A stretch of DNA of 64,000 nt from an uncultured Desulfobacter sp. (GTDB lineage: Bacteria; Desulfobacterota; Desulfobacteria; Desulfobacterales; Desulfobacteraceae). The notes under the pieces were generated by a model. The model was not told the origin of the DNA, ran no database searches, and saw nothing but the letters and a program-made list of their open reading frames with translations. The position numbers were made by a program, and so were the translations under genes. Shown one piece after another: positions 3,004 through 45,431 of the stretch (position 1 is its first letter; each line of letters begins with the position of its first letter). Location: assembly GCA_963665095.1 (NCBI GenBank), contig OY762069.1, positions 1,824,001-1,888,000 of the forward strand, written 5' to 3'.

Positions 3004-3774
3004 TTTACAGATAAAATTGGGGGGGGGACTGGCAAACGCCGGTCCCCGATTTACTTTAAAAACATCATACCTTGTGCCAAGCCGTTATGACAAGGATATT
3101 GAGACTACAAACGATAAAGCTCACCCTCGAATTGTGGGAGGCCGAAGGACTGAAAAAAGAATTGAACGGCTTTATTGACAAGGGTTCAGGTCCACAATGA
3201 TACCATTATTGCGGTCTGCTAAAAAATTTGAATTAGTAGGAATCGGAACCCCCAGGATACACGTAATATTGCTCGCTGTTTTGATGATTTCAAAAGTGTG
3301 GACGTACAGATAAGATGAGAAGGCTGGAACCCACCGTGGTATAATTTCACGGTAAGGAAAATTTAATAAAGGAGGTACCAGCCATGAAACGTAATATCAC
3401 TATTGGTATGGATTTGGGAGATCAGAAAAATGTGGTCGTTGCAATGGATGAAACAGGAAAAGAAATTGAAACAAAAACCATTGTTGAGTCGCATTTTATC
3501 CTGACTTAAATTTTCTAATTATTTTGAACAGATTAAATCTTTTCCATATTATTTAAGACAGCTACAGAAGTCGCTGCGCTCCTTCTCAGTAGGTTTTTAA
3601 GGCATAGGCAGAACAGCTTGAATAAAGCAGAAAGGGGAAGCAGGTAATCCCCACTTCCCCTGGCGCATTATTCAATGCTGCCTGCTTCCGGCTATCCCTT
3701 ACCAGGTTGCTCCTCAGCAGAGCCCGGCTCCGTTTCACCGAAATCGTAATATTCTGCTCTATGGCTGTTTTTTC

Positions 3775-4584
3775 TTAAAAAATTTCCGATGAAGCAATGC
3801 GGACATGCTCTGCAGATACCGTCATTGATTTTTCTGCCGCAGCAGCAATCAATGAGCCTCTGGCAAGATTATTCGCCTTTCGTAAAAGGCCGCCGGAGCC
3901 TTGATGAATCGCAGTCACCGCCTGGTCAGAAAAAAAGTTGGTGTCAACACCGCATAGTTTTAAATGATGGATCAGGTAAGTTTTCATTCCAGCCACATCC
4001 AGACCATCCAGATGGCTTTTAGCCACAATCCTGGATGCAAACGGGATTGACGTCCGGTACTGAAGCTTATCTATCAATGTCGGCTGACCTGCAAGGATCA
4101 CAGGCAGCCAGGGCATGGCGTCTTTTTCAAATTGAACCAGGGTGTGAAGTTCGGCAAAGACTTCCATGCGAAGCAGAGATGCCTCATCTATAATCAAAAC
4201 GGTTTTGATCTTTTTTCCCAGGACGAATTCACGTATTTCATTTTTAATAATGGAGATCATAACAGCGCGGGACGTCGATGTCCGCTCTATGCCCAGTTCT
4301 TCAACAATCTGCCGGTAAAGTTCCATGATGGAACCGCTTGAGGCCGTAACATAAAAGACTTTGTATTCCGAAGGGTGTAGGGATGAGGCGGCATACCTTA
4401 AGGCGGTGGACTTTCCGCTGCCCACATCCCCTGTGATAACCGCACTGCAGCCAAGTCTTAAGGAATAATCAATCCGATTTTTAACGCCCGAGACCTCCGG
4501 GGTGACCAGGATATCATTGATTTCTATCTGCGCCGGGAAGGCCTCCCTGGATAAGCCAAAAAAGGTGCGATACATTTCACTCAT
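3775..4584 (-). CDS. ExeA/TniB-like AAA+ ATPase (transposition helper)
   Basis: Walker A GDVGSGKS, Walker B LIIDEA, LAGQP motif; start overlaps the transposase stop. Confidence 0.88.
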   Translation of the reverse strand: MSEMYRTFFGLSREAFPAQIEINDILVTPEVSGVKNRIDYSLRLGCSAVITGDVGSGKSTALRYAASSLHPSEYKVFYVTASSGSIMELYRQIVEELGIERTSTSRAVMISIIKNEIREFVLGKKIKTVLIIDEASLLRMEVFAELHTLVQFEKDAMPWLPVILAGQPTLIDKLQYRTSIPFASRIVAKSHLDGLDVAGMKTYLIHHLKLCGVDTNFFSDQAVTAIHQGSGGLLRKANNLARGSLIAAAAEKSMTVSAEHVRIASSEIF

Positions 4585-5837
4585 AACAGTTGCCCTCCCT
4601 TGTAATTTGAGGGTTCAGGCATAATCCGGATATCATTTTCGTTCCAGCGGTGCCGCTTGACCCGACAGTTCACAGCAAGGTCCACCGGGGTTAACAAGCC
4701 ATAAGACTTTGCTTTATAGATAACTTCAGCCTGCAAAGGGGTGTCCTCATGGTACTTTACATCCACATGTCTGCCGATCAGCGCAACCGGGGCCTCAAAC
4801 ATGTTGCCGTCAAGGGTGATGGTTCGGTCCTTTGCCACCTTGCGCCGGGCGGTTTTGCGGAAGTGGTCTTTCAGATCCGGTGGGGCGGTACGGATGCACT
4901 CCATGGCCGAGGTAAATCTTTTAAACGGTGATTCGCCTGTGGAGCTGTGTTTACGCTGATGGTACTCATTATGAAGCCACTTCTCAAATGCCCCATTCAG
5001 ATCATCCAGGGTCTTACCTGTAAATCTTTGCAGAAACTGAAGCCGAACCGTTCTGAACCAGCGCTCGATTTTACCTTTCCCCTGGGGCTTATATGGCCTT
5101 GCATGGATTAAAGCGATGGACAGAGACGCTGCTACATATTTTAAATGATGGGATCTGAACGCAGGACCGTTATCTACATACAGCTTGCGGGGAAGCCCAC
5201 GGCTCAAAAAAGCCTGCTCCAGCACCATAAGATAGGTCTTCAGATTCTCAGATAAATAAAAACCTGCAGCCGTAACCAGCCTGGAATGATCGTCCATAAT
5301 GGCAATCAGGTACGTTTTTCTTTGCTTATCCTGAACCAGGACTGTAGGGCCGTGCATGACGTCGCTTTGCCACATATCATTGGGGTGCGGGGCTTCAAAC
5401 TTTCTTCTATCCTCTGGCCGGGCCGTGTTCATTAGCCCCCGGCCGCGTAAAAAACGGTATACACTGGATGGACTGTATGTCTGGCATGTAGTTTTTTGAA
5501 GTGAACAGATCAATGTATCGACTGTCGCATCAGGCTGGTCTAACCGGAGTTTGATTAGTTGAGATGCAGTCTCGTCATCGAATACCCTTGATTTTCCCTG
5601 GTCTGAACGGTCTTTGGGGTAAAGAGACTCTATTCGACCGTTATACTGCCGGACCCATCCCAGAATCGTACTTCTGGAAAGCCTGGTCCTTCCAGAATAC
5701 GGGATGGACCATTTGCGGGCGCACTTCTGCTGTAAAATTCGTTCTTTTTCACCGTAATCAAAATTTGTTCCGGTCACAAATTCACAAATGACCCCAAACC
5801 TGAACACGGCAACCTCTTTTTTCTGATTTTCTGTCAT
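4581..5837 (-). CDS. DDE (rve) transposase with Mu-like C-terminal domain
   Basis: WQSDVMHGP, DDHSRL, YVDNG and GKGKIERWF motifs; N-terminal HTH; RBS AAGGAGG. Confidence 0.92.
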   Translation of the reverse strand: MTENQKKEVAVFRFGVICEFVTGTNFDYGEKERILQQKCARKWSIPYSGRTRLSRSTILGWVRQYNGRIESLYPKDRSDQGKSRVFDDETASQLIKLRLDQPDATVDTLICSLQKTTCQTYSPSSVYRFLRGRGLMNTARPEDRRKFEAPHPNDMWQSDVMHGPTVLVQDKQRKTYLIAIMDDHSRLVTAAGFYLSENLKTYLMVLEQAFLSRGLPRKLYVDNGPAFRSHHLKYVAASLSIALIHARPYKPQGKGKIERWFRTVRLQFLQRFTGKTLDDLNGAFEKWLHNEYHQRKHSSTGESPFKRFTSAMECIRTAPPDLKDHFRKTARRKVAKDRTITLDGNMFEAPVALIGRHVDVKYHEDTPLQAEVIYKAKSYGLLTPVDLAVNCRVKRHRWNENDIRIMPEPSNYKGGQLL

Positions 5838-5940
5838 ACTTCCTCCTTAAAATTTGGTTCTAAGGGCTTGTATGACAGTATGATCCTTCGGTAAATCACA
5901 GCCTTCGGTAGGGTGGTTTAAACCTGATCCAGCCCCATGG

Positions 5941-6387
5941 TTAAATTGAACTGGTAACCGGGATTTTACCCATACCGATTAGCTTGATAAAACCAGCAAC
6001 CACACCTTTGTCCCAACTGTTGGACAGGTAGGCCGCTATATTTCGTTTCAATGCAGTAAACCAAAAATGCTGTCGACTCCAGGAGAGTTCCGGCAGATAC
6101 CGGTCTGTGTATAGACGACTCATAATGCTGGTAAGGATTTGCCAGATACTGGCCTGGAACCTCTTGAAAAAACCATATGGCTTCAATTTGAATACGGTTT
6201 TGCAATAGGGGCAGCGATATCGCTTCAAATACACCCCTTGATCAAATCCATCAAAAAAGGAGAGTACAAAGCCGTGTCCCCACAGCCTGGAGTCGTTGCA
6301 ATGTGGACATCGTGACGGTTTTGGCCATGTAAAATTTTTGCCCTGCTTGAAAATTTGCTTGATATCAGCTTTGACCTTTATTATCAT
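5941..6387 (-). CDS. Transposon-associated Zn-ribbon protein (DUF6431-like)
   Basis: CPHC...CPYC pairs; first gene inside the element ends. Confidence 0.65.
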   Translation of the reverse strand: MIIKVKADIKQIFKQGKNFTWPKPSRCPHCNDSRLWGHGFVLSFFDGFDQGVYLKRYRCPYCKTVFKLKPYGFFKRFQASIWQILTSIMSRLYTDRYLPELSWSRQHFWFTALKRNIAAYLSNSWDKGVVAGFIKLIGMGKIPVTSSI

Positions 6388-7925
6388 TTTTATGGTTGTT
6401 TTGGGATTTTATAAATCCCGGTCTTAAGGGCGAGGCTCTGCAAAGCTTTTCGCCCTTTTCATTTTTGTCAGAATGCTTTGATCAGAACCTGTACAGGATA
6501 ATTTGAGAAAAATGGAACTTTGTCAATTTAATATGAAAAATTTGGCGGGTTTTTGTTCAGGTTATTTCGGGAATCTACACCATTCGCAATACAGAACTTT
6601 CTCTCCGAAAATTTTTCTCCCGATATTGCGATGCCACTGTTGCCATTGAAGCTGGGACCCATTCTCCGTGGATTAGTAGGTTGTTAAAAGAAATCGGTTG
6701 TACCGTATATATTGGCAATCCACGAAAATTAAGGATTATCTGGGACAGCAATGATAAATCAGATCTCCGGGATGCAAGAATTCTTGCAATGGTTTGCCGG
6801 GTTGAACCCAGATTGCTATGGCCAATAAAGCATAGAGACAGACAAGCCTATGCTGATTTAGGGATCATTAAAGCAAGAGACACCCTGGTGCAAAACCGTG
6901 TTCGAATGATCAATCATATCCGTAGTGTTACCAAAACAAGTGGCAGCAGAATCCCAAAATGCAGCACACCAAGTTTTTCAAAACGGGCGCCAGATTACAT
7001 ACCAAAAGAATCAAGAGGGTCGCTTGACCCATTAATAACCACGATTGATCACCTGACTCAACAAATTAAAGAAATGGATCGTCAAATCAACAAATTATGC
7101 AAAAAGTATTCTGAAACTGAAAAATTACTTCAAGTACCGGGTGTTGGTCCAATCACCGCCTTGGCTTTTGTTTTAACAATAGAAGATCCCCATCGTTTTA
7201 CAAAAAGTCGCCAAGTAGGGGCTTTCCTGGGATTGACACCTAAACGAGACCAATCTGGGAAATGCGATAAACAACTACGAATAAGCAAGGCGGGTAATAC
7301 ATATTTAAGATCTTTGCTTGTCAGTTGTGGACATTACATCATCGGCCCTTTTGGGCCAGAATGTGATTTGCGCGCATTTGGATTATCAATAGTTTTACGT
7401 GGTGGCAAAAATGCAAAGAAGCGTGCCGCGGTAGCTTTGGCCAGAAAACTTGCTGTTCTACTACATAGGTTATGGATAAGTGATCAGAAGTATAATTGCT
7501 TTTATAGTGACGTTGCTAACACAGCTGCATAGGTTTGATTTAAACCCATGACGTCCTGTCCAGGAGACTGCGGACTATCCCTTGCACCGATTTGAAGTGG
7601 ACCCCATGTCAAGACCGATTTTAACGTTTTTTAAGCTACATTTTCTCTGTTTCTAATTTCGAATCAGCCTGTTAAAGACCCTCTTTTCCGGCATATTTTT
7701 CTTGATATTTAATACCGCTATGTTATCCTCCCGCCGCCAACCCGGAGGATAGGGCAATGCTGGGAAGCAACCTGAGCGCCGTGGCTGGCGACGAAGACAT
7801 GGGGGCAGTATACGTTTAATGTATGCTGTCCTTCCCCCATGTTTTTGTCCTTAATGCGTTAAATCCTCGCGCCTTAGCGCGAAATCAATACCCCGTAGGG
7901 CCGCCGGAGGCATCAGGCCTTTCCT

Positions 7926-8732
7926 TTAAGCCGCTCGATAGACCGAAAACGGCACCTTATACCCCAGGGCTGAATGAAGTCTCTCCCGATTATAAAACCC
8001 GATAAACGCTTTTAACGATTGCTGAGCCTCTCTTACCGTTCTGTAGTCCTTCAAATAGACTTCTTCGTATTTAATCGTTCTCCACAGCCGTTCCACAAAA
8101 ACGTTGTCCAAGGCTCTGCCCTTTGAATCCATGCTGATTTTGATGTTTTTAGCCTGGAGTATCTTCAAAAATTTTAATGAAGTGAACTGACTACCCTGGT
8201 CAGTGTTGAAAATCTCAGGTGTCGATACAATCAATGCCTCCTCAAGGGCCTCAATACAAAATGTATTCTCAAGGGTGTTACTGAGGCGCCATGAAAGGAC
8301 ATATCTGCTAAACCAATCCATAACCGCCAATAAGTACATAAATCCGTTTCCAATTCTAATGTATGTGATATCTGTACTCCATACCTGATCTGGCCTGTCA
8401 ATTACGGCATTTTTCAGCAAATAGGGGTAAACTTTATGGCTTTCATCCCTCCTTGTTGTTTTAGGTCCTGGGTAAATCGCTTCTATTCTCATCAGCTTCA
8501 TCAGGCGCTGTACTCGTTTCCTGCTTACCGGATACCCCATATTGTTCAGCCAGGCTGTAAGCCTACGGCTTCCATAAAAGGGGGTTTTGGTATGCTGCTC
8601 ATCAAGCAGATCCATAAGGGTTAATGTATACGGGCTTATGGCTACCGGCCTGTAATACAACGCCCCTTTTGAAACCTGAAGCAGTTCACACTGCCGGTTA
8701 ATGCTGATGGAAGGATGTTGTTTATCTATCAA
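7926..8732 (-). CDS. IS3 transposase OrfB (DDE integrase core)
   Basis: YGSRR, WSTDITY, NTDQGSQF and DNVFVERLW motifs. Confidence 0.92.
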   Translation of the reverse strand: MIDKQHPSISINRQCELLQVSKGALYYRPVAISPYTLTLMDLLDEQHTKTPFYGSRRLTAWLNNMGYPVSRKRVQRLMKLMRIEAIYPGPKTTRRDESHKVYPYLLKNAVIDRPDQVWSTDITYIRIGNGFMYLLAVMDWFSRYVLSWRLSNTLENTFCIEALEEALIVSTPEIFNTDQGSQFTSLKFLKILQAKNIKISMDSKGRALDNVFVERLWRTIKYEEVYLKDYRTVREAQQSLKAFIGFYNRERLHSALGYKVPFSVYRAA

Positions 8733-8742
8733 CCCCCTTCTG

Positions 8743-9027
8743 TCAGAGATTGATTGTATTAACCTTTTTTTTTAACCAGTCATTCTCAACTTCGAGCTGA
8801 CCGATTTTCTTATATAATTCGTCTATTAGATTCTGAGTATCATTTGGGCTTTTCTTTTTCGCTGATGAAAACAACGTCGGAAGACCCTCTATCGCTTCTT
8901 TCTTCCATCTGTTTAACATAGTTCGATGAACCTGGTATTTGGATGACAACTCCGCAAGAGTTTCATTTTCTCGAATCACATCAACTACAACTTTAGCTTT
9001 GAACTTTCCGGTATAATTTTTTCTCAT
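8743..9027 (-). CDS. IS3 transposase OrfA (HTH)
   Basis: MRKNYTGKFKAKVV..WLKKK; RBS AAGGAGG upstream of ATG 9027; A9G run at 8764-8773. Confidence 0.88.
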   Translation of the reverse strand: MRKNYTGKFKAKVVVDVIRENETLAELSSKYQVHRTMLNRWKKEAIEGLPTLFSSAKKKSPNDTQNLIDELYKKIGQLEVENDWLKKKVNTINL

Positions 9028-9538
9028 GGACCTCCTTTTTCGGTACAAATTTGAACCGGGTTTTTATCACCTCATATGTACCTTAGCAACTGGTTCAAAT
9101 TTCGGGGTCCATTATAATTAGCTGCCGCTAATAAACATAACGAGTGCGCGTAACAGATTGCAGCTCCTGCCGACGGATCTTAACATGCACCGGGACAATG
9201 GCAGGTCCCCCAAAGAGTGCGAATGGAAGCGTGACGGTTTGGGTTTTAAAAAGGGGTGAGATAAAAACCCGCTCCAGCGGGAGCCAATTCCCTCCGACGG
9301 GCAGTTTTTGTGGTGCCCATTCTCAGGACTGGCTCCCACTTCCGCTGGACTGAGCGGTTAAATTAACACCCATAAAATTGATGTTCGTGAATCGAACACT
9401 TGACTTGCCTTCTCATGGAAGGGATAGTCTGGGGTACTCATCGCCCTCTAAAAATAAGTTGGCCTCGAAAGTAGTCCTCACTATTGACACATGATCTATG
9501 TTTACCGCCGTGAGCTCATAGGTGGTGTTCCTTCGATT

Positions 9539-42213: not shown

Positions 42214-43101
42214 TTATTTCCTGGGATGAAAGGTATTATGCATTTTGATCAGGTAATCCCTTGAAATATGTGTATAAATCTGGGTGGTGGAGATATCGGA
42301 ATGGCCCAGCATGGTCTGCACGGAACGAAGGTCCGCCCCGCCCTCTATCAGGTGGGTGGCAAAGGAGTGCCGCAGGGTATGGGGAGACACCGGCTTTAAG
42401 ATACCGGCGATGGCTGCCTGTTTTTTAATGATTTTCCAGAACGCCTGCCGGGTCATGGGGCGGCCGGCCCTTGCCGTAAACAGGTAATCGCTGGGAATCT
42501 GCTTTAACTCCAGGGGCCGGCCCCGGGTAAGCCAGAGCCTGCCTGCAGCCTGGGCCTTGGAGCCCACAGGCACAATCCGCTCCCTGGAACCTTTTCCCAT
42601 AACCCGGACCAGTCCACTGTCAAGGTTCACATCCAGCACTTTGAGGTTCACAAGTTCTGATACCCTGAGTCCTGCCCCGTACATGATCTCCATCATGGCA
42701 AGGTTTCTTAATCCTTTTGGGGTAGTGGACGGGCATGAGTCAAGCAGCATTTCAATTTCAGCGACCGAAATTACAGCCGGCAGGTAGCGGCCGGTTTTGG
42801 GGATATCAATATCCTTGATGGGGTTGGTGTGAATCAGTTTTTCACCGGTGAGATATTTATAAAACCCGCGGATGGCAATCAGGTGTCTTGCCCGGGATTT
42901 GGCGGACAGCCCCTGGCGGTTCAGCTGAACCAGCCATCCAAGGATGGCTGTGGCGTCTGCATGGGAAATATCGGGAATGCCGTTGCTTTCCAGATAGTTC
43001 AGATAGGAGGCAAGATCTGCGCTGTAGGCGGTGATGCTGTTGGGGGAAAGCCCTTTTTCAATGGTCAGGTAATCCATGTATGCGTCTGCCAACTCATGCA
43101 T
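42214..43101 (-). CDS. xerD: Site-specific tyrosine recombinase XerD
   Basis: GLRVSEL, GKGSRER, HTLRHSFATH, LGHSDISTTQIY; likely start MHELADAY at 43101. Confidence 0.88.
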   Translation of the reverse strand: MHELADAYMDYLTIEKGLSPNSITAYSADLASYLNYLESNGIPDISHADATAILGWLVQLNRQGLSAKSRARHLIAIRGFYKYLTGEKLIHTNPIKDIDIPKTGRYLPAVISVAEIEMLLDSCPSTTPKGLRNLAMMEIMYGAGLRVSELVNLKVLDVNLDSGLVRVMGKGSRERIVPVGSKAQAAGRLWLTRGRPLELKQIPSDYLFTARAGRPMTRQAFWKIIKKQAAIAGILKPVSPHTLRHSFATHLIEGGADLRSVQTMLGHSDISTTQIYTHISRDYLIKMHNTFHPRK

Positions 43102-43190
43102 ACCTTTGTCCTTTATCATAAAAAAACTGGTTATATTTATTTTATATACAGTGCATGGCGTTTCATGAATTTTTACACCGTGTTTTGCAG

Positions 43191-45431
43191 CTATTGAAAA
43201 AGCTCTGAAATACATCTGAATCCAATCGTATTGGAGGTAAATTCAGGCGTAAACAGCCCACGGGAGCTTATGGTGACGGTATCTTTGGCATTCCAGGCTG
43301 CGCCCTTGGCCACGCTGTACCGGATCTTTCGGCGGGTGGCAAATGGTGGATCCTGCGAATCGGTAGTCCACTCCATGACATTGCCAAGCAGGTCAGCCAT
43401 GCCAAAGGCATTGACGGCATGATCATAGGCATCCACAGAACTTGTGTCGGAAAGGCCTGAAGACTCAACGTTCAGGGCCATAGAGTTAAACTCATTGCCC
43501 CAGGGGTATTTAAGGGCCATATCTGTCCTGGCTGCCGCCTCCCACTCTGCTTCCGTTGGCAGCCGTCGGCCGATCCAGGATGCATAGGCAAAGGCATCAT
43601 CCACGCTGATCTGCACCACAGGGTGGTTTCTTTTGCCATGCAGGGTTGAACCGGGGCCTGTGGGCTGATGCCAGCACGCACCTTTAATAATGGATGATCC
43701 GGCCTGCTTTTTCCAGGACACGGCGTCGCCCTCTTTTTTAAAACGGGAATGATAAACTGTGCCAAACCCTTTTCTTTCCGCTGTGGTCACATACCCGGTC
43801 AGTTCCACAAAAATTTCAAACAATGCATTGGTCACGGGATATTTACCCATAAAAACCTGGGGCATGTCAAAGGGCTGCAGGGACAGACTTGATTTCAGTG
43901 CTTTTTCAGTGCCAATGGTATAGGTTCCGGCCGGAATTGTAACATATGCATTGTATTTTTTTTCACGCTCACCCAGGGTATCGTCAAACTGTTCGGCAAG
44001 CTCTCTGGCATTTCTGAACTCCTCCAGGGCTTTTTGCTCATCTTCATCAAGTTCATCAACCTCTTCAAGGTCCTCATCTTCGCCAAGATCAATTTCTTCG
44101 ATTTCCTGATCCTCATCCAGCTCAATGTCTTCGATTTCTTCAAGGGCCTCGTCATCGTCCAGTTCAACATCTTCGATTTCTGTGTCTTCATCTATCTCTT
44201 CAAGCTCTTCTAAGTCTTCATCTTCATCCAGTTCAACCTCTTCAATTTCCTGATCCTCATCACTTCCTTCGACCGCTTCAAGCGCATCTTCGTCCACCTC
44301 CTCGATCTCTGCGTCCAGGAGATCTTCGTCAATCTCCTCTACGTCACCATCCAGAAGATCCTCATCGACTTCTTCTATCTCTTCATCTTCATCAACTTCT
44401 ATCTCCTCAATTTCCTGATCTTCATCTATCTCTTCTATTTCTGCATCCAGAAGGTCTTCGTCAATCTCTTCAAGTTCATCATCTTCGTCCACCTCCTCGA
44501 TCTGTGCATCCAGGAGATCTTCGTCAATCTCCTCTACGTCACCATCCAGAAGATCTTCATCGACTTCTTCTATCTCTTCATCTTCATCAACTTCTATCTC
44601 CTCAATTTCCTGGTCTTCATCAATCTCTTCTATTTCCGTGTCCAGAAGGTCTTCGTCAATCTCTTCAAGTTCATCATCTTCGTCCACCTCCTCGATCTCT
44701 GCGTCCAGGAGATCTTCGTCAATCTCCTCTATCTCTTCATCTTCATCAACTTCTATCTCCTCAATTTCCTGGTCTTCCTCTACCTCCTCAATCTCCTCAA
44801 TCTCCTCTATTTCGCTATCATCTATCTCCTCAATCTCAACATCTTCATCTTCTGAAACCCCCTCACTGCCGCCACCGGCAGCGCCATCTGCATCATCATC
44901 AAAAATTCCGGCATTCAGACGATTTAATACCTTTTTGATCTGCTCAATAACATCAATGGATTCATTATCAGCATCAGGGGATTCTATTTTATCCAGAAAC
45001 TCAGCCACTGCTTTAAGAACATCCGCAGCCTTGGTCAGGTCAAAGCCGTCTGTTTTGACTGCATCACTGAAAGACTGCAAAAGACTGCTTTTAGCAGCCT
45101 CTGTCATATCAAAGGTGTTGGTATCAGTAATTGTTATCTCTTCCGGGTTAAGACCATCCCGGACAAGTTTACTTAAATCCGCGTTAATGGAAGATTTCAG
45201 GCTGGAAAAATTTCTTCTTTTGGACTTGAGTTTAGAGGGATTATCTCCTACATCCCAAATTTGTTGAATCAGGGTGTCGCTGTCAATGAAGTTAAGCTGC
45301 TGCACCGCGTCTTCGGAAACATAATAGGCACAGATGGCCTGCATGGCCTTATCCTTGACAGAACCGGGGCGGTAGTTAAGATTTTCTACTGCCTGTGTAA
45401 TACCGGACAGCGTAACGGATACATTGGCCAA
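43191..45431 (-). CDS. FGE-sulfatase (SUMF1/C-type-lectin fold) protein with a long Asp/Glu-rich repeat linker
   Basis: C-terminal YPVTN, HPVVQIS, RLPTEAEWE, GNVMEW, GFRC; roughly 280-aa acidic tract. Confidence 0.85.
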   Translation of the reverse strand: MANVSVTLSGITQAVENLNYRPGSVKDKAMQAICAYYVSEDAVQQLNFIDSDTLIQQIWDVGDNPSKLKSKRRNFSSLKSSINADLSKLVRDGLNPEEITITDTNTFDMTEAAKSSLLQSFSDAVKTDGFDLTKAADVLKAVAEFLDKIESPDADNESIDVIEQIKKVLNRLNAGIFDDDADGAAGGGSEGVSEDEDVEIEEIDDSEIEEIEEIEEVEEDQEIEEIEVDEDEEIEEIDEDLLDAEIEEVDEDDELEEIDEDLLDTEIEEIDEDQEIEEIEVDEDEEIEEVDEDLLDGDVEEIDEDLLDAQIEEVDEDDELEEIDEDLLDAEIEEIDEDQEIEEIEVDEDEEIEEVDEDLLDGDVEEIDEDLLDAEIEEVDEDALEAVEGSDEDQEIEEVELDEDEDLEELEEIDEDTEIEDVELDDDEALEEIEDIELDEDQEIEEIDLGEDEDLEEVDELDEDEQKALEEFRNARELAEQFDDTLGEREKKYNAYVTIPAGTYTIGTEKALKSSLSLQPFDMPQVFMGKYPVTNALFEIFVELTGYVTTAERKGFGTVYHSRFKKEGDAVSWKKQAGSSIIKGACWHQPTGPGSTLHGKRNHPVVQISVDDAFAYASWIGRRLPTEAEWEAAARTDMALKYPWGNEFNSMALNVESSGLSDTSSVDAYDHAVNAFGMADLLGNVMEWTTDSQDPPFATRRKIRYSVAKGAAWNAKDTVTISSRGLFTPEFTSNTIGFRCISELFQ
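44290..44775. repeat. 195-bp (65-aa) intragenic tandem repeat, ~2.5 copies
   Basis: TCGTCCACCTCCTCGATCT recurs at 44290, 44485 and 44680. Confidence 0.85.

Follow-up and report, generated by a model that had tools for sequence, protein, structure and literature searches.

A disabled IS1111-group insertion sequence in an uncultured Desulfobacter, with candidate RNA guides that covary with its target and left end

An analysis of 64,000 nucleotides of contig OY762069.1 from an uncultured Desulfobacter sp. (the window) identified, at positions 3308 to 9421, a disabled copy of an RNA-guided insertion sequence of the IS1111 group, in an ISAcp5/ISCARN52-like clade. The probability of this reading is put at about 0.92. 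The copy has defined ends and a core, conserved catalytic residues, three guides that covary with DNA, covarying RNA helices, and intact siblings at other copies of its target repeat. Its assignment to the IS110-family bridge or seek RNA systems, made in a preliminary description of this DNA, is upheld by a match to NF033542 above the cut-off and by the covariation of three of the four guides with the DNA assigned to them. The general kind is already known; the clade is divergent and apparently uncharacterised. All coordinates are those of the window, on the plus strand except for two inserted elements on the minus strand.

The genome also has empty target sites, each with a single AG. These set the ends independently and agree with the AG core and ends proposed earlier. 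Insertion is without a true target duplication, with one AG in the empty sites and one at each end of the filled site (3308 to 3309 and 9420 to 9421). The left end, 3310 to 3316, is the segment read by the left donor guide and includes the -10 box (3311 to 3316) of a predicted circle-junction promoter, the -35 box of which is at 9400 to 9405. Besides this copy, 20 of 49 full-length homologues have the predicted layout, with 17 bp between the boxes, the same rule missing the other 29. A 10 bp subterminal inverted repeat starts 7 bp inside the left end, counting the core (3315 to 3324), and its partner at 9407 to 9416 is followed by a 3 bp extension. These repeats are perfect over 10 to 16 bp in all 49 homologues, and the 7 bp left and 3 bp right extensions are those by which IS1111 is defined. 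Non-coding sequence is also distributed as in IS1111, with 74 bp at the left end and 360 bp at the right, downstream of the gene. The joint of right end to left end expected of a circle is absent among the joints listed for four sets of contigs, which drop rare forms. Rfam models at their gathering thresholds have no matches in the window.

The window copy has been split twice. A 3098 bp IS encoding an orphan ORF, an rve transposase, and an AAA_22 ATPase occupies 3482 to 6579 on the minus strand, with a CCAT duplication at 6580 to 6583. Its rve transposase is closest to IS481, yet falls below the cut-off, and there are 13 further long copies of this IS in the same genome (G000). A 1524 bp IS3 is at 7593 to 9116 on the minus strand, where it interrupts the target hairpin in its inner stem, with an ATT duplication at 9117 to 9119. 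The excision of 7593 to 9119 made in the preliminary description was therefore correct, being the IS3 plus its duplication. The 348 aa enzyme proposed there can be obtained in frame, but this also requires removal of the 3098 bp IS, which had been omitted, and the 348 codons are free of stops only with a 4 bp (CCAT) duplication. Both excisions are found in nature, as contigs join 3476 to 6579 and 7589 to 9117 in three of the four runs examined.

Because the gene and the RNA are both split, the window copy is unable to act in cis. A search for uninterrupted homologues, as had been suggested, found copies with 99.1 to 99.5% identity at other sites, and these intact siblings sit at other copies of the same target repeat. 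It had been proposed that the element be rebuilt from this locus. Rebuilding is unnecessary, and inferior to the use of the intact copy L182, since such uninterrupted copies exist and the window copy carries three private missense changes.

The recombinase gene is in two pieces, 3384 to 3481, which encodes catalytic D10, and 6584 to 7532, which encodes E55, D93, D96, and S257 and matches PF01548 and PF02371. Profile matches and conserved residues give the architecture of IS110, an N-terminal DEDD RuvC domain together with a C-terminal domain bearing the catalytic Ser. Across 48 sequences, all five residues reach 95% conservation or more. NF033542 scores 197.7 bits on the piece in the window and 211.3 on locus L001, against a cut-off of 140. 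The enzyme has 28% identity over 286 aa to that of IS4321/IS5075 and 33% to the closest plasmid match, and the nearest named elements, compared by eye only, are ISCARN52 and ISAcp5. Relatives of the enzyme were found in just 3 of 401 genomes in a phylum-wide protein search, the source genome included. Viral contigs yielded neither a relative of the recombinase nor a copy of the target repeat.

The four stretches of sequence and the two scaffold motifs on which the RNA was first recognised are present as described. The plus strand of the window has just two copies of each motif, those of CGG-N9-TGCACC starting at 7571 and 9174, those of GAGTGCG at 9142 and 9215. The match scores given for them, 9/9, 4 in register, 7/9, and 7/8, are likewise accurate. 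Target guide 1 (the LTG equivalent, 7574 to 7582) is a 9/9 complement of the core and right flank, which lengthens to 10/10 if G7573 is included. Chance alone would give approximately 0.0014 such 9-mer matches in the 362 nt non-coding region. Target guide 2 (the RTG equivalent, 9150 to 9156) is 7 nt and matches 4/7 in register here. It is followed by a handshake-like dinucleotide (9157 to 9158) that repeats the two bases with which the left end begins. Donor guide 1 (the LDG equivalent, 9177 to 9185) ends in CA and not CT, as does that of IS621, and donor guide 2 (the RDG equivalent, 9223 to 9229) matches the right end at 7/7.

It is clear from 138 homologous loci, with 41 different guides and flanks, that covariation with the DNA to be read extends to three of the four guides, and that the guides are real. 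Compared with shuffled pairings, for which permutation p-values overstate significance as the homologues are kin, the right-flank guide matches 199 of 328 positions (shuffled 95.5±8.9), the left-flank guide 140 of 198 (56.6±6.6), and the left-end guide 71 of 112 (51.0±4.1). The signal holds for the flank guides when near-identical guides are thinned (84 of 144, shuffled 39.6±5.9, and 67 of 96, shuffled 25.8±4.9). Both target guides thus track the insertion site, as had been anticipated for the guides of loop 1. The left donor guide tracks changes in the left end, its positions 4 to 7 matching in 11, 13, 13, and 14 of 14 distinct guides. The right donor guide matches fully but is invariant, and it was fixed by the search pattern and the end-finding rule; it is a candidate guide. 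In 48 of 49 homologues the target-loop handshake dinucleotide equals the start of the left end, including four GT/GT switches; the donor-loop dinucleotide equals the flank at only one of 49 loci. It could be argued that the matches are due to chance, or are relics of a local duplication and do not function as guides, since three of the four are short or imperfect in the window copy. This is exceedingly improbable, however, given that register-specific identity over the 41 guides and flanks is far above permutation and a control with wrong pairs is negative (21 of 120, shuffled 29.3±4.9).

Two details of the original pairing have been revised. The first base of its 8-mer guides does not follow the DNA (2 of 33 for the left-flank guide), and the register is instead that of IS621, with a 9 nt and a 7 nt guide and one linker base before each. 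The single bulge in the left-flank pairing, though possible, is not needed, as homologues pair in register. With 4/7, the left-flank guide of the window copy is among the five weakest of 47 guide-site pairs. GTACAG terminates two of the four sites that share its guides and is also the commonest left half of the empty sites in the genome. At locus L153, which has the same guides, the right flank does not match. In the RNA, the match to the target's top strand is 5' of the match to the bottom strand, an order like that of IS1111.

Comparison of the RNAs predicts that the target loop is nested inside the donor multiloop, rather than in tandem with a second loop, which agrees with published structures for many IS1111 RNAs. 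The helix closing the multiloop pairs 7552 to 7555 with 9233 to 9236 and shows compensatory changes, and the 5' part of the target hairpin is at 7562 to 7592. This helix scores 244, against 182.6±7.9 in shuffled controls, and the tandem alternative scores 86 against 100.6±4.2. On these scores the tandem loops implied by the preliminary description are rejected. Its symmetric duplicated scaffold is exact in the window copy, TGCACC/GAGTGCG being in both inner stems, but this is a trait of a subclade (12 of 97 RNAs), and IS621 has already been described as having pseudo-symmetric loops. The scaffold might suggest two independent internal loops arisen by duplication of one module, and the closest relatives do permit a helix from the linker to the 3' side (76 of 95 cells). 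Against this, pairing of the 5' arm holds in 75 of 76 cells and shows compensatory changes, shuffled controls outscore the linker helix across 75 RNAs, and loop 1 has neither motif in 82 of 97, making such an origin very unlikely. The layout of IS621, with an upstream RNA and two separate internal loops, was not found, as the RNA here is downstream and nested. The single-sequence fold is only modestly stable (z -1.97). The inner stem of the donor loop is invariant in all 19 aligned RNAs, and both partners vary in 19 of the 34 stem pairs of a structure drawn from the same alignment.

The predicted domains are 80 nt for the target hairpin and 158 nt for the whole RNA. The size of the hairpin recalls ISEc11, where an 82 nt RNA with matches to the target alone sufficed for movement. 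Only the hairpin might therefore guide, with the protein reading the ends through the subterminal repeats and the donor matches vestigial or accessory. In favour of this, the left donor guide falls short of a full match (7/9), and its right counterpart, fixed by the search pattern, carries no weight either way. A solely seek-type RNA is nevertheless unlikely in view of the left donor guide following changes in the left end, the invariance of the donor inner stem, and the covariation of its closing helix.

For a four-guide nested RNA, the sequence of events would be that an intact 1485 bp element is released as a circle, in which the joined ends, from work on IS1111 and IS621, would form a promoter for the 348 aa DEDD/Ser recombinase and the RNA downstream of it. 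An RNA of approximately 160 nt would present a target hairpin of approximately 80 nt inside a donor multiloop, and recombination at AG would insert the element with one AG left on either side. Transcription, binding of the RNA by the protein, circle formation, and reprogrammability would be expected of an intact copy.

The host DNA on the left (3199 to 3307) is a conserved leader half, of about 110 bp, of a target repeat. The leader recurs at six other places in the source genome with 76 to 94% identity, running into an empty site, and comes before the first site of several arrays; a search of 251 genomes of the order gave five matches. The right flank (9422 to 9482) is the remainder of a two-box repeat of about 62 bp that has 27 copies in the source genome and is found in 35 of 121 genomes of the family. 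These repeats bound gene modules in the fashion of integron cassettes. Like attC arrays and CALINs, the sites are co-oriented between modules of one or two genes, often toxin-antitoxin pairs, and the modules recur among different neighbours. The ends of attC have the consensus RYYYAAC/GTTRRRY. The repeat here differs from attC, which was rejected as the target, in having two direct boxes at fixed spacing, none of those ends, and no consistent full-length hairpin.

The PF00589, PF01797, PF04986, and TIGR02249 matches of the genome were searched for a recombinase of the arrays, and no recombinase-like ORF common to the 17 array loci was found. The genome's single true integron integrase is at least 165 kb away from every one of the 27 sites, and two broken integrase remnants lie 0.5 and 5 kb distant from one. 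The integrase at 42214 to 43215 in the window was considered and identified as XerD. Targets of the clade do not in general have the two-box motif, which is at 5 of 8 close relatives, 1 of 52 flanks of the Acidobacteria type, and 0 of 44 others. No description of the repeat was found in the literature. It is possible, though tentative, that the Desulfobacteraceae have an integron-like cassette system so far undescribed, and that the element is a parasite of its recombination site. Such a system would have a conserved leader and two-box sites of about 62 bp other than attC, with no linked integrase.

As a tool or concept, the element is another orthologue in a heavily mined family, in which bridge or seek RNAs have been predicted for 93% of IS1111 elements and guides called for 32,190 bridge RNAs. 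Its specific value lies in the dozens of guides that nature has reprogrammed and in intact copies at 99% identity. The comparisons suggest that, in an element with subterminal inverted repeats, the RNA reads the element's ends as well and a handshake base pair is retained, a point relevant to the disagreement between the bridge and seek models. If so, a nested RNA would reconcile the two, with the short seekRNA representing a target hairpin excised from a four-guide RNA. A widespread repeat that acts like a cassette junction is also indicated by the guide and, if real, is a more interesting object than the element itself. The clade would then parallel the association of IS1111 with attC, and its guides would be a natural probe for such cassette systems.

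By eye, and for the proteins alone, ISCARN52 and ISAcp5, both of ISfinder, share with this clade the motifs DLGD and E.GTHS.W.SRL, the C-terminal motif RGG..A..RA..A.ARKLAVLLH.LW, and the conserved residues of the enzymes. In a literature search both names were found only in the seekRNA paper, which terms ISAcp5 a more diverged IS1111 relative (PMC11187229). Long non-coding regions are reported on both sides of ISAcp5, unlike the 74 and 360 bp here. In the same paper, ISEc11, ISKpn4, ISPst6, and ISPa11 share with this element the downstream non-coding region, the 7 and 3 bp extensions, a junction promoter (predicted here), the top-strand match 5' of the bottom-strand match, and an enzyme of 330 to 350 aa. 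The predicted 80 and 158 nt domains resemble their short (82 to 96 nt) and long (148 to 172 nt) RNAs (PMC11187229). ISKpn4 and ISPst6 insert at attC cassette sites, whereas the target here is neither attC nor REP. The enzyme is also distant, as seen against IS4321/IS5075, and the donor guides here are readable and the left one covaries, none being reported in the available part of PMC11187229. With IS621 and ISCro4 (PMC11208160, PMC11208158) the element shares the CT core (AG on the coding strand), the A-x4-G-x-guide register, a 9 nt left guide and a right guide of 4 to 7 nt, an LDG ending in A opposite the core, and a handshake dinucleotide after the RTG. It differs from them in its weak protein similarity (E 2.5e-10 and 8e-11), its downstream RNA with nested rather than tandem loops, sites read opposite to the orientation of the gene, a contiguous 7 nt right donor guide, and its long subterminal inverted repeats.

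The element runs from the AG at 3308-3309 to the AG at 9420-9421. Its left flank occurs six further times in the same genome, each time passing through one single AG straight into right-flank sequence; these empty sites define where the element ends and what its core is. The AG core claimed in the preliminary description is therefore borne out by empty sites of the same genome, and the guides, scaffold motifs and match scores quoted there were all as stated when checked against the sequence. Two multi-copy insertion sequences interrupt the element. The recombinase gene is split by one of 3098 bp (3482-6579; duplication CCAT) and the RNA by an IS3 (7593-9116; duplication ATT). With both excised by script, the element is 1485 bp and the gene has 348 codons without stops. 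The insertion-free state is natural, as contigs span both insertion points uninterrupted in three of four runs; in the fourth, X1, where all sampled words were present and which is possibly the source run, neither insertion-free joint was seen in the contigs. The 3482-6579 insertion has three genes (an orphan ORF, an rve transposase nearest to IS481 though below cut-off, and an AAA_22 ATPase) and 13 other long copies with duplications of 4-5 bp, one of them within an IS3 copy.

The uninterrupted homologues proposed as a check were found as three copies in two same-genus genomes, L182 (99.5%), L154 (99.4%) and L153 (99.1%), all with the 348-codon frame open. The insertion sites of L182 and L154 are further copies of the window copy's target repeat. 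L182 has seven differences from the window copy and L154 differs from it at the same seven, so only the window copy has these changes. Three of them alter residues (76, 176 and 179), two of which lie in columns that agree in 45/47 and 40/47 homologues; L154 has a change of its own, in the conserved G221. The 348-aa enzyme said to be rebuildable is thus recovered as an open frame, but with three private residue changes, and the window copy is disabled, gene and RNA alike. The intact copy at L153:316-1802 has the same guides, a left flank that is a module end and a right flank unmatched by its guide, possibly through insertion on a half match or through rearrangement afterwards. Both ends and the RNA region are kept, with a minimal gene or none, in short copies at L160:1491-1633 (about 430 bp), L161 and L048, which are possibly non-autonomous derivatives. 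An approximately 85 bp part of the right non-coding region (9265-9346) is a separate small repeat inside the element, being also free-standing in this genome and many family genomes, with up to six occurrences per genome.

The protein combines a DEDD with a Transposase_20 domain and scores above the NCBIfam cut-off for IS110 RNA-guided transposases. Conservation of D10, E55, D93, D96 and S257 is 95% or higher among 48 sequences of 40-89% identity. The element fits the IS1111-type layout as defined in PMC11187229. Its 10 bp inverted repeats are set in from the ends by 7 bp (left) and 3 bp (right), and perfect inverted repeats of 10-16 bp are present in all 49 full-length homologues. The left end is 74 bp and the right end 360 bp. 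Based on the sigma-70 consensus, the joined ends of the window copy form a predicted promoter (-35, 17 bp, -10), a rule satisfied by just 20/49 full-length homologues. The left end also contains an extended -10-like box (3337-3345), found by the same rule in 20/49 homologues, from which the integrated element could be expressed at a low level. It is well supported that the element is real and belongs to a known kind, the IS1111 bridge/seek recombinases.

For covariation, loci were collected by protein (21), by a 21-nt RNA pattern (at least 120) and by phylum search (3), the pattern being present in 138 of 144 loci among the matches listed. These gave 139 rows including the window, of which 119 had a right flank, 54 had a left flank and 51 were complete, again among the matches listed. 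Each test left out rows without a parsed guide or flank. Within a fixed register every distinct guide contributed one count, including those that were misparsed or shifted. Among the matches listed, target guide 1 (7574-7582) agrees with the right flank at 199/328 positions over 41 guides, against 95.5±8.9 when shuffled (maximum 136 in 20,000 permutations), and target guide 2 (9150-9156) with the left flank at 140/198 over 33 guides, against 56.6±6.6. Thinning left 84/144 against 39.6±5.9 for target guide 1 (18 well-separated guides) and 67/96 against 25.8±4.9 for target guide 2. A wrong-pairing control gave 21/120 against 29.3±4.9. The suggested covariation of the target guides with the flanks is therefore present, far above permutations; kinship of the homologues inflates the p-values, and the register-specific identity is beyond what shared descent alone would create. 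The window copy's own target guide 2 is matched at 4/7, among the five weakest of 47 pairs.

The first position of each compared segment does not follow the DNA (7/41 for guide 1, 2/33 for guide 2), so the target guides are 9 and 7 nt behind one linker base, and the second guide, previously read as 8 nt, is shortened accordingly. In L007, L008, L022, L051 and L069 target guide 1 is displaced from its scaffold position, or is longer, by 1-2 nt with its flank match kept, hence the register can slide. The dinucleotide 3' of target guide 2 is identical to the left end's opening two bases in 48/49 loci, including four GT/GT switches; its donor-loop counterpart matches the flank in 1/49. The claim that the second loop reads the ends holds for donor guide 1 (9177-9185), which covaries with the left end at 71/112 over 14 guides among the matches listed (51.0±4.1, maximum 66), but the 7/7 match of donor guide 2 (9223-9229) to the right end is built into the search pattern. 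Beside these counts, a seek-only variant of donor recognition appears unlikely.

A structural alignment used 19 intact relatives, hand-picked from 97. Retention of its 34 proposed pairs is 96%, and 19 of them have changes on both sides, the structure being derived from this same alignment. Pairing between the strand 3' of the last guide and a segment on the 5' side of the target hairpin is seen in 75/76 cells, and in 75 RNAs the closing-helix run scores 244 against 182.6±7.9. In 55/65 RNAs the 3' arm switches between G and A in step with GCC/GTC in the 5' arm. A tandem topology was rejected, its helices scoring 86 against 100.6±4.2 when shuffled (75 RNAs). As the pairing of the arms and their covariation beat this alternative, the target hairpin is nested in the donor multiloop. 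The predicted sizes are 80 nt for the target hairpin and 158 nt for the whole with the multiloop, and these domains appear to resemble short and long seekRNAs. The duplicated symmetric scaffold described previously is seen in the window copy, but exact shared inner stems are present in just 12/97 RNAs.

The intact element is, with a probability of about 0.92, a four-guide bridge recombinase. It would be released as a circle, with a promoter arising at the circle junction; the RNA guides would pair with both strands of target and of donor, and strands would be exchanged at AG. Transcription, binding and catalysis would be as in IS621 and ISEc11, from which we infer them. The nested four-guide RNA is a lead that could serve to test the bridge against the seek model.

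The element has inserted into an approximately 62 bp repeat that has 27 copies and contains two boxes a constant distance apart. Neighbouring repeats no more than 6 kb apart are co-oriented in 12/13 pairs, and the exact pattern is found in 35/121 family genomes, with 0 matches for the reversed control. The stretches between sites are modules of one or two genes, among them RelE/HTH, ParDE, HicB, DUF4160/DUF2442, Fic and RhuM. The 17 array loci give 17 alignments of 300 bp or more among them. In 14 of these, one end or both fall in a site in both loci; in four, each end is no more than 25 bp from a site; and the remaining three comprise a probable IS and two paralogous stretches. Module neighbours switch at the first box, which is the element's insertion point. 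Arrays of swappable modules (toxin-antitoxin pairs and others) bounded by co-oriented repeats, with homology between arrays beginning or stopping at sites, are present at G000:C1:5879994-5890156 (L145) and 2767227-2772439 (L146) in the same genome, and at L172-L181 and L185. No recombinase linked to the arrays was found among the genome's recombinase-family matches or in the 17 array loci. Set against the integron attC consensus and the label CALIN, the repeat is not attC-like and the arrays are without a linked integrase. A conserved leader of about 110 bp (3199-3309), with six other copies in the genome, precedes the first site in several arrays, a position resembling that of a primary attachment site. 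In a large metagenome subclade (L023-L139, about 52 loci) target sites begin GCGATTAC or GCCATA, and the flank of L024 has an imperfect palindrome. No published description of the repeat was found among the papers listed in literature searches, which is weak evidence of absence; the cassette-like repeat is a further lead.

Directly left of the element is an IS1634-like transposase in two fragments (2280-2909). Adjoining the element is a defence island (9539-29977) with an AAA_21 ATPase pair, a DUF499/DUF1156/SNF2 cluster, a CBASS cyclase with phospholipase, and a type I methylase.

No experimental study of the element's clade was found in the literature, and the available text of PMC11208160 has no relevant match to its end and RNA motifs. 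bioRxiv 2026.10.21.760802 describes 32,190 bridge RNAs in 86 models, which may include this clade. Further known work comprises PMC11208158, PMC13626964, PMC13604230, PMC12288879 and bioRxiv 2025.05.14.653916, 2024.01.24.577089, 2026.08.31.748434 and 2026.03.19.712850.

Donor guides lie in a multi-loop in many IS1111 RNAs according to the available text of PMC11208160, with which the nesting was compared by text only. Loop pseudo-symmetry has already been described for IS621. IS621 has the same register, with 9- and 7-nt guides after a linker base, and the dinucleotide after target guide 2 corresponds to its described handshake pairing. The enzyme itself matches IS621/ISCro4 weakly, and the best plasmid relatives are at most 33% identical to it. 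ISCARN52 and ISAcp5 share the clade motifs of its protein, in a by-eye comparison with sequences in the supplements of two papers.
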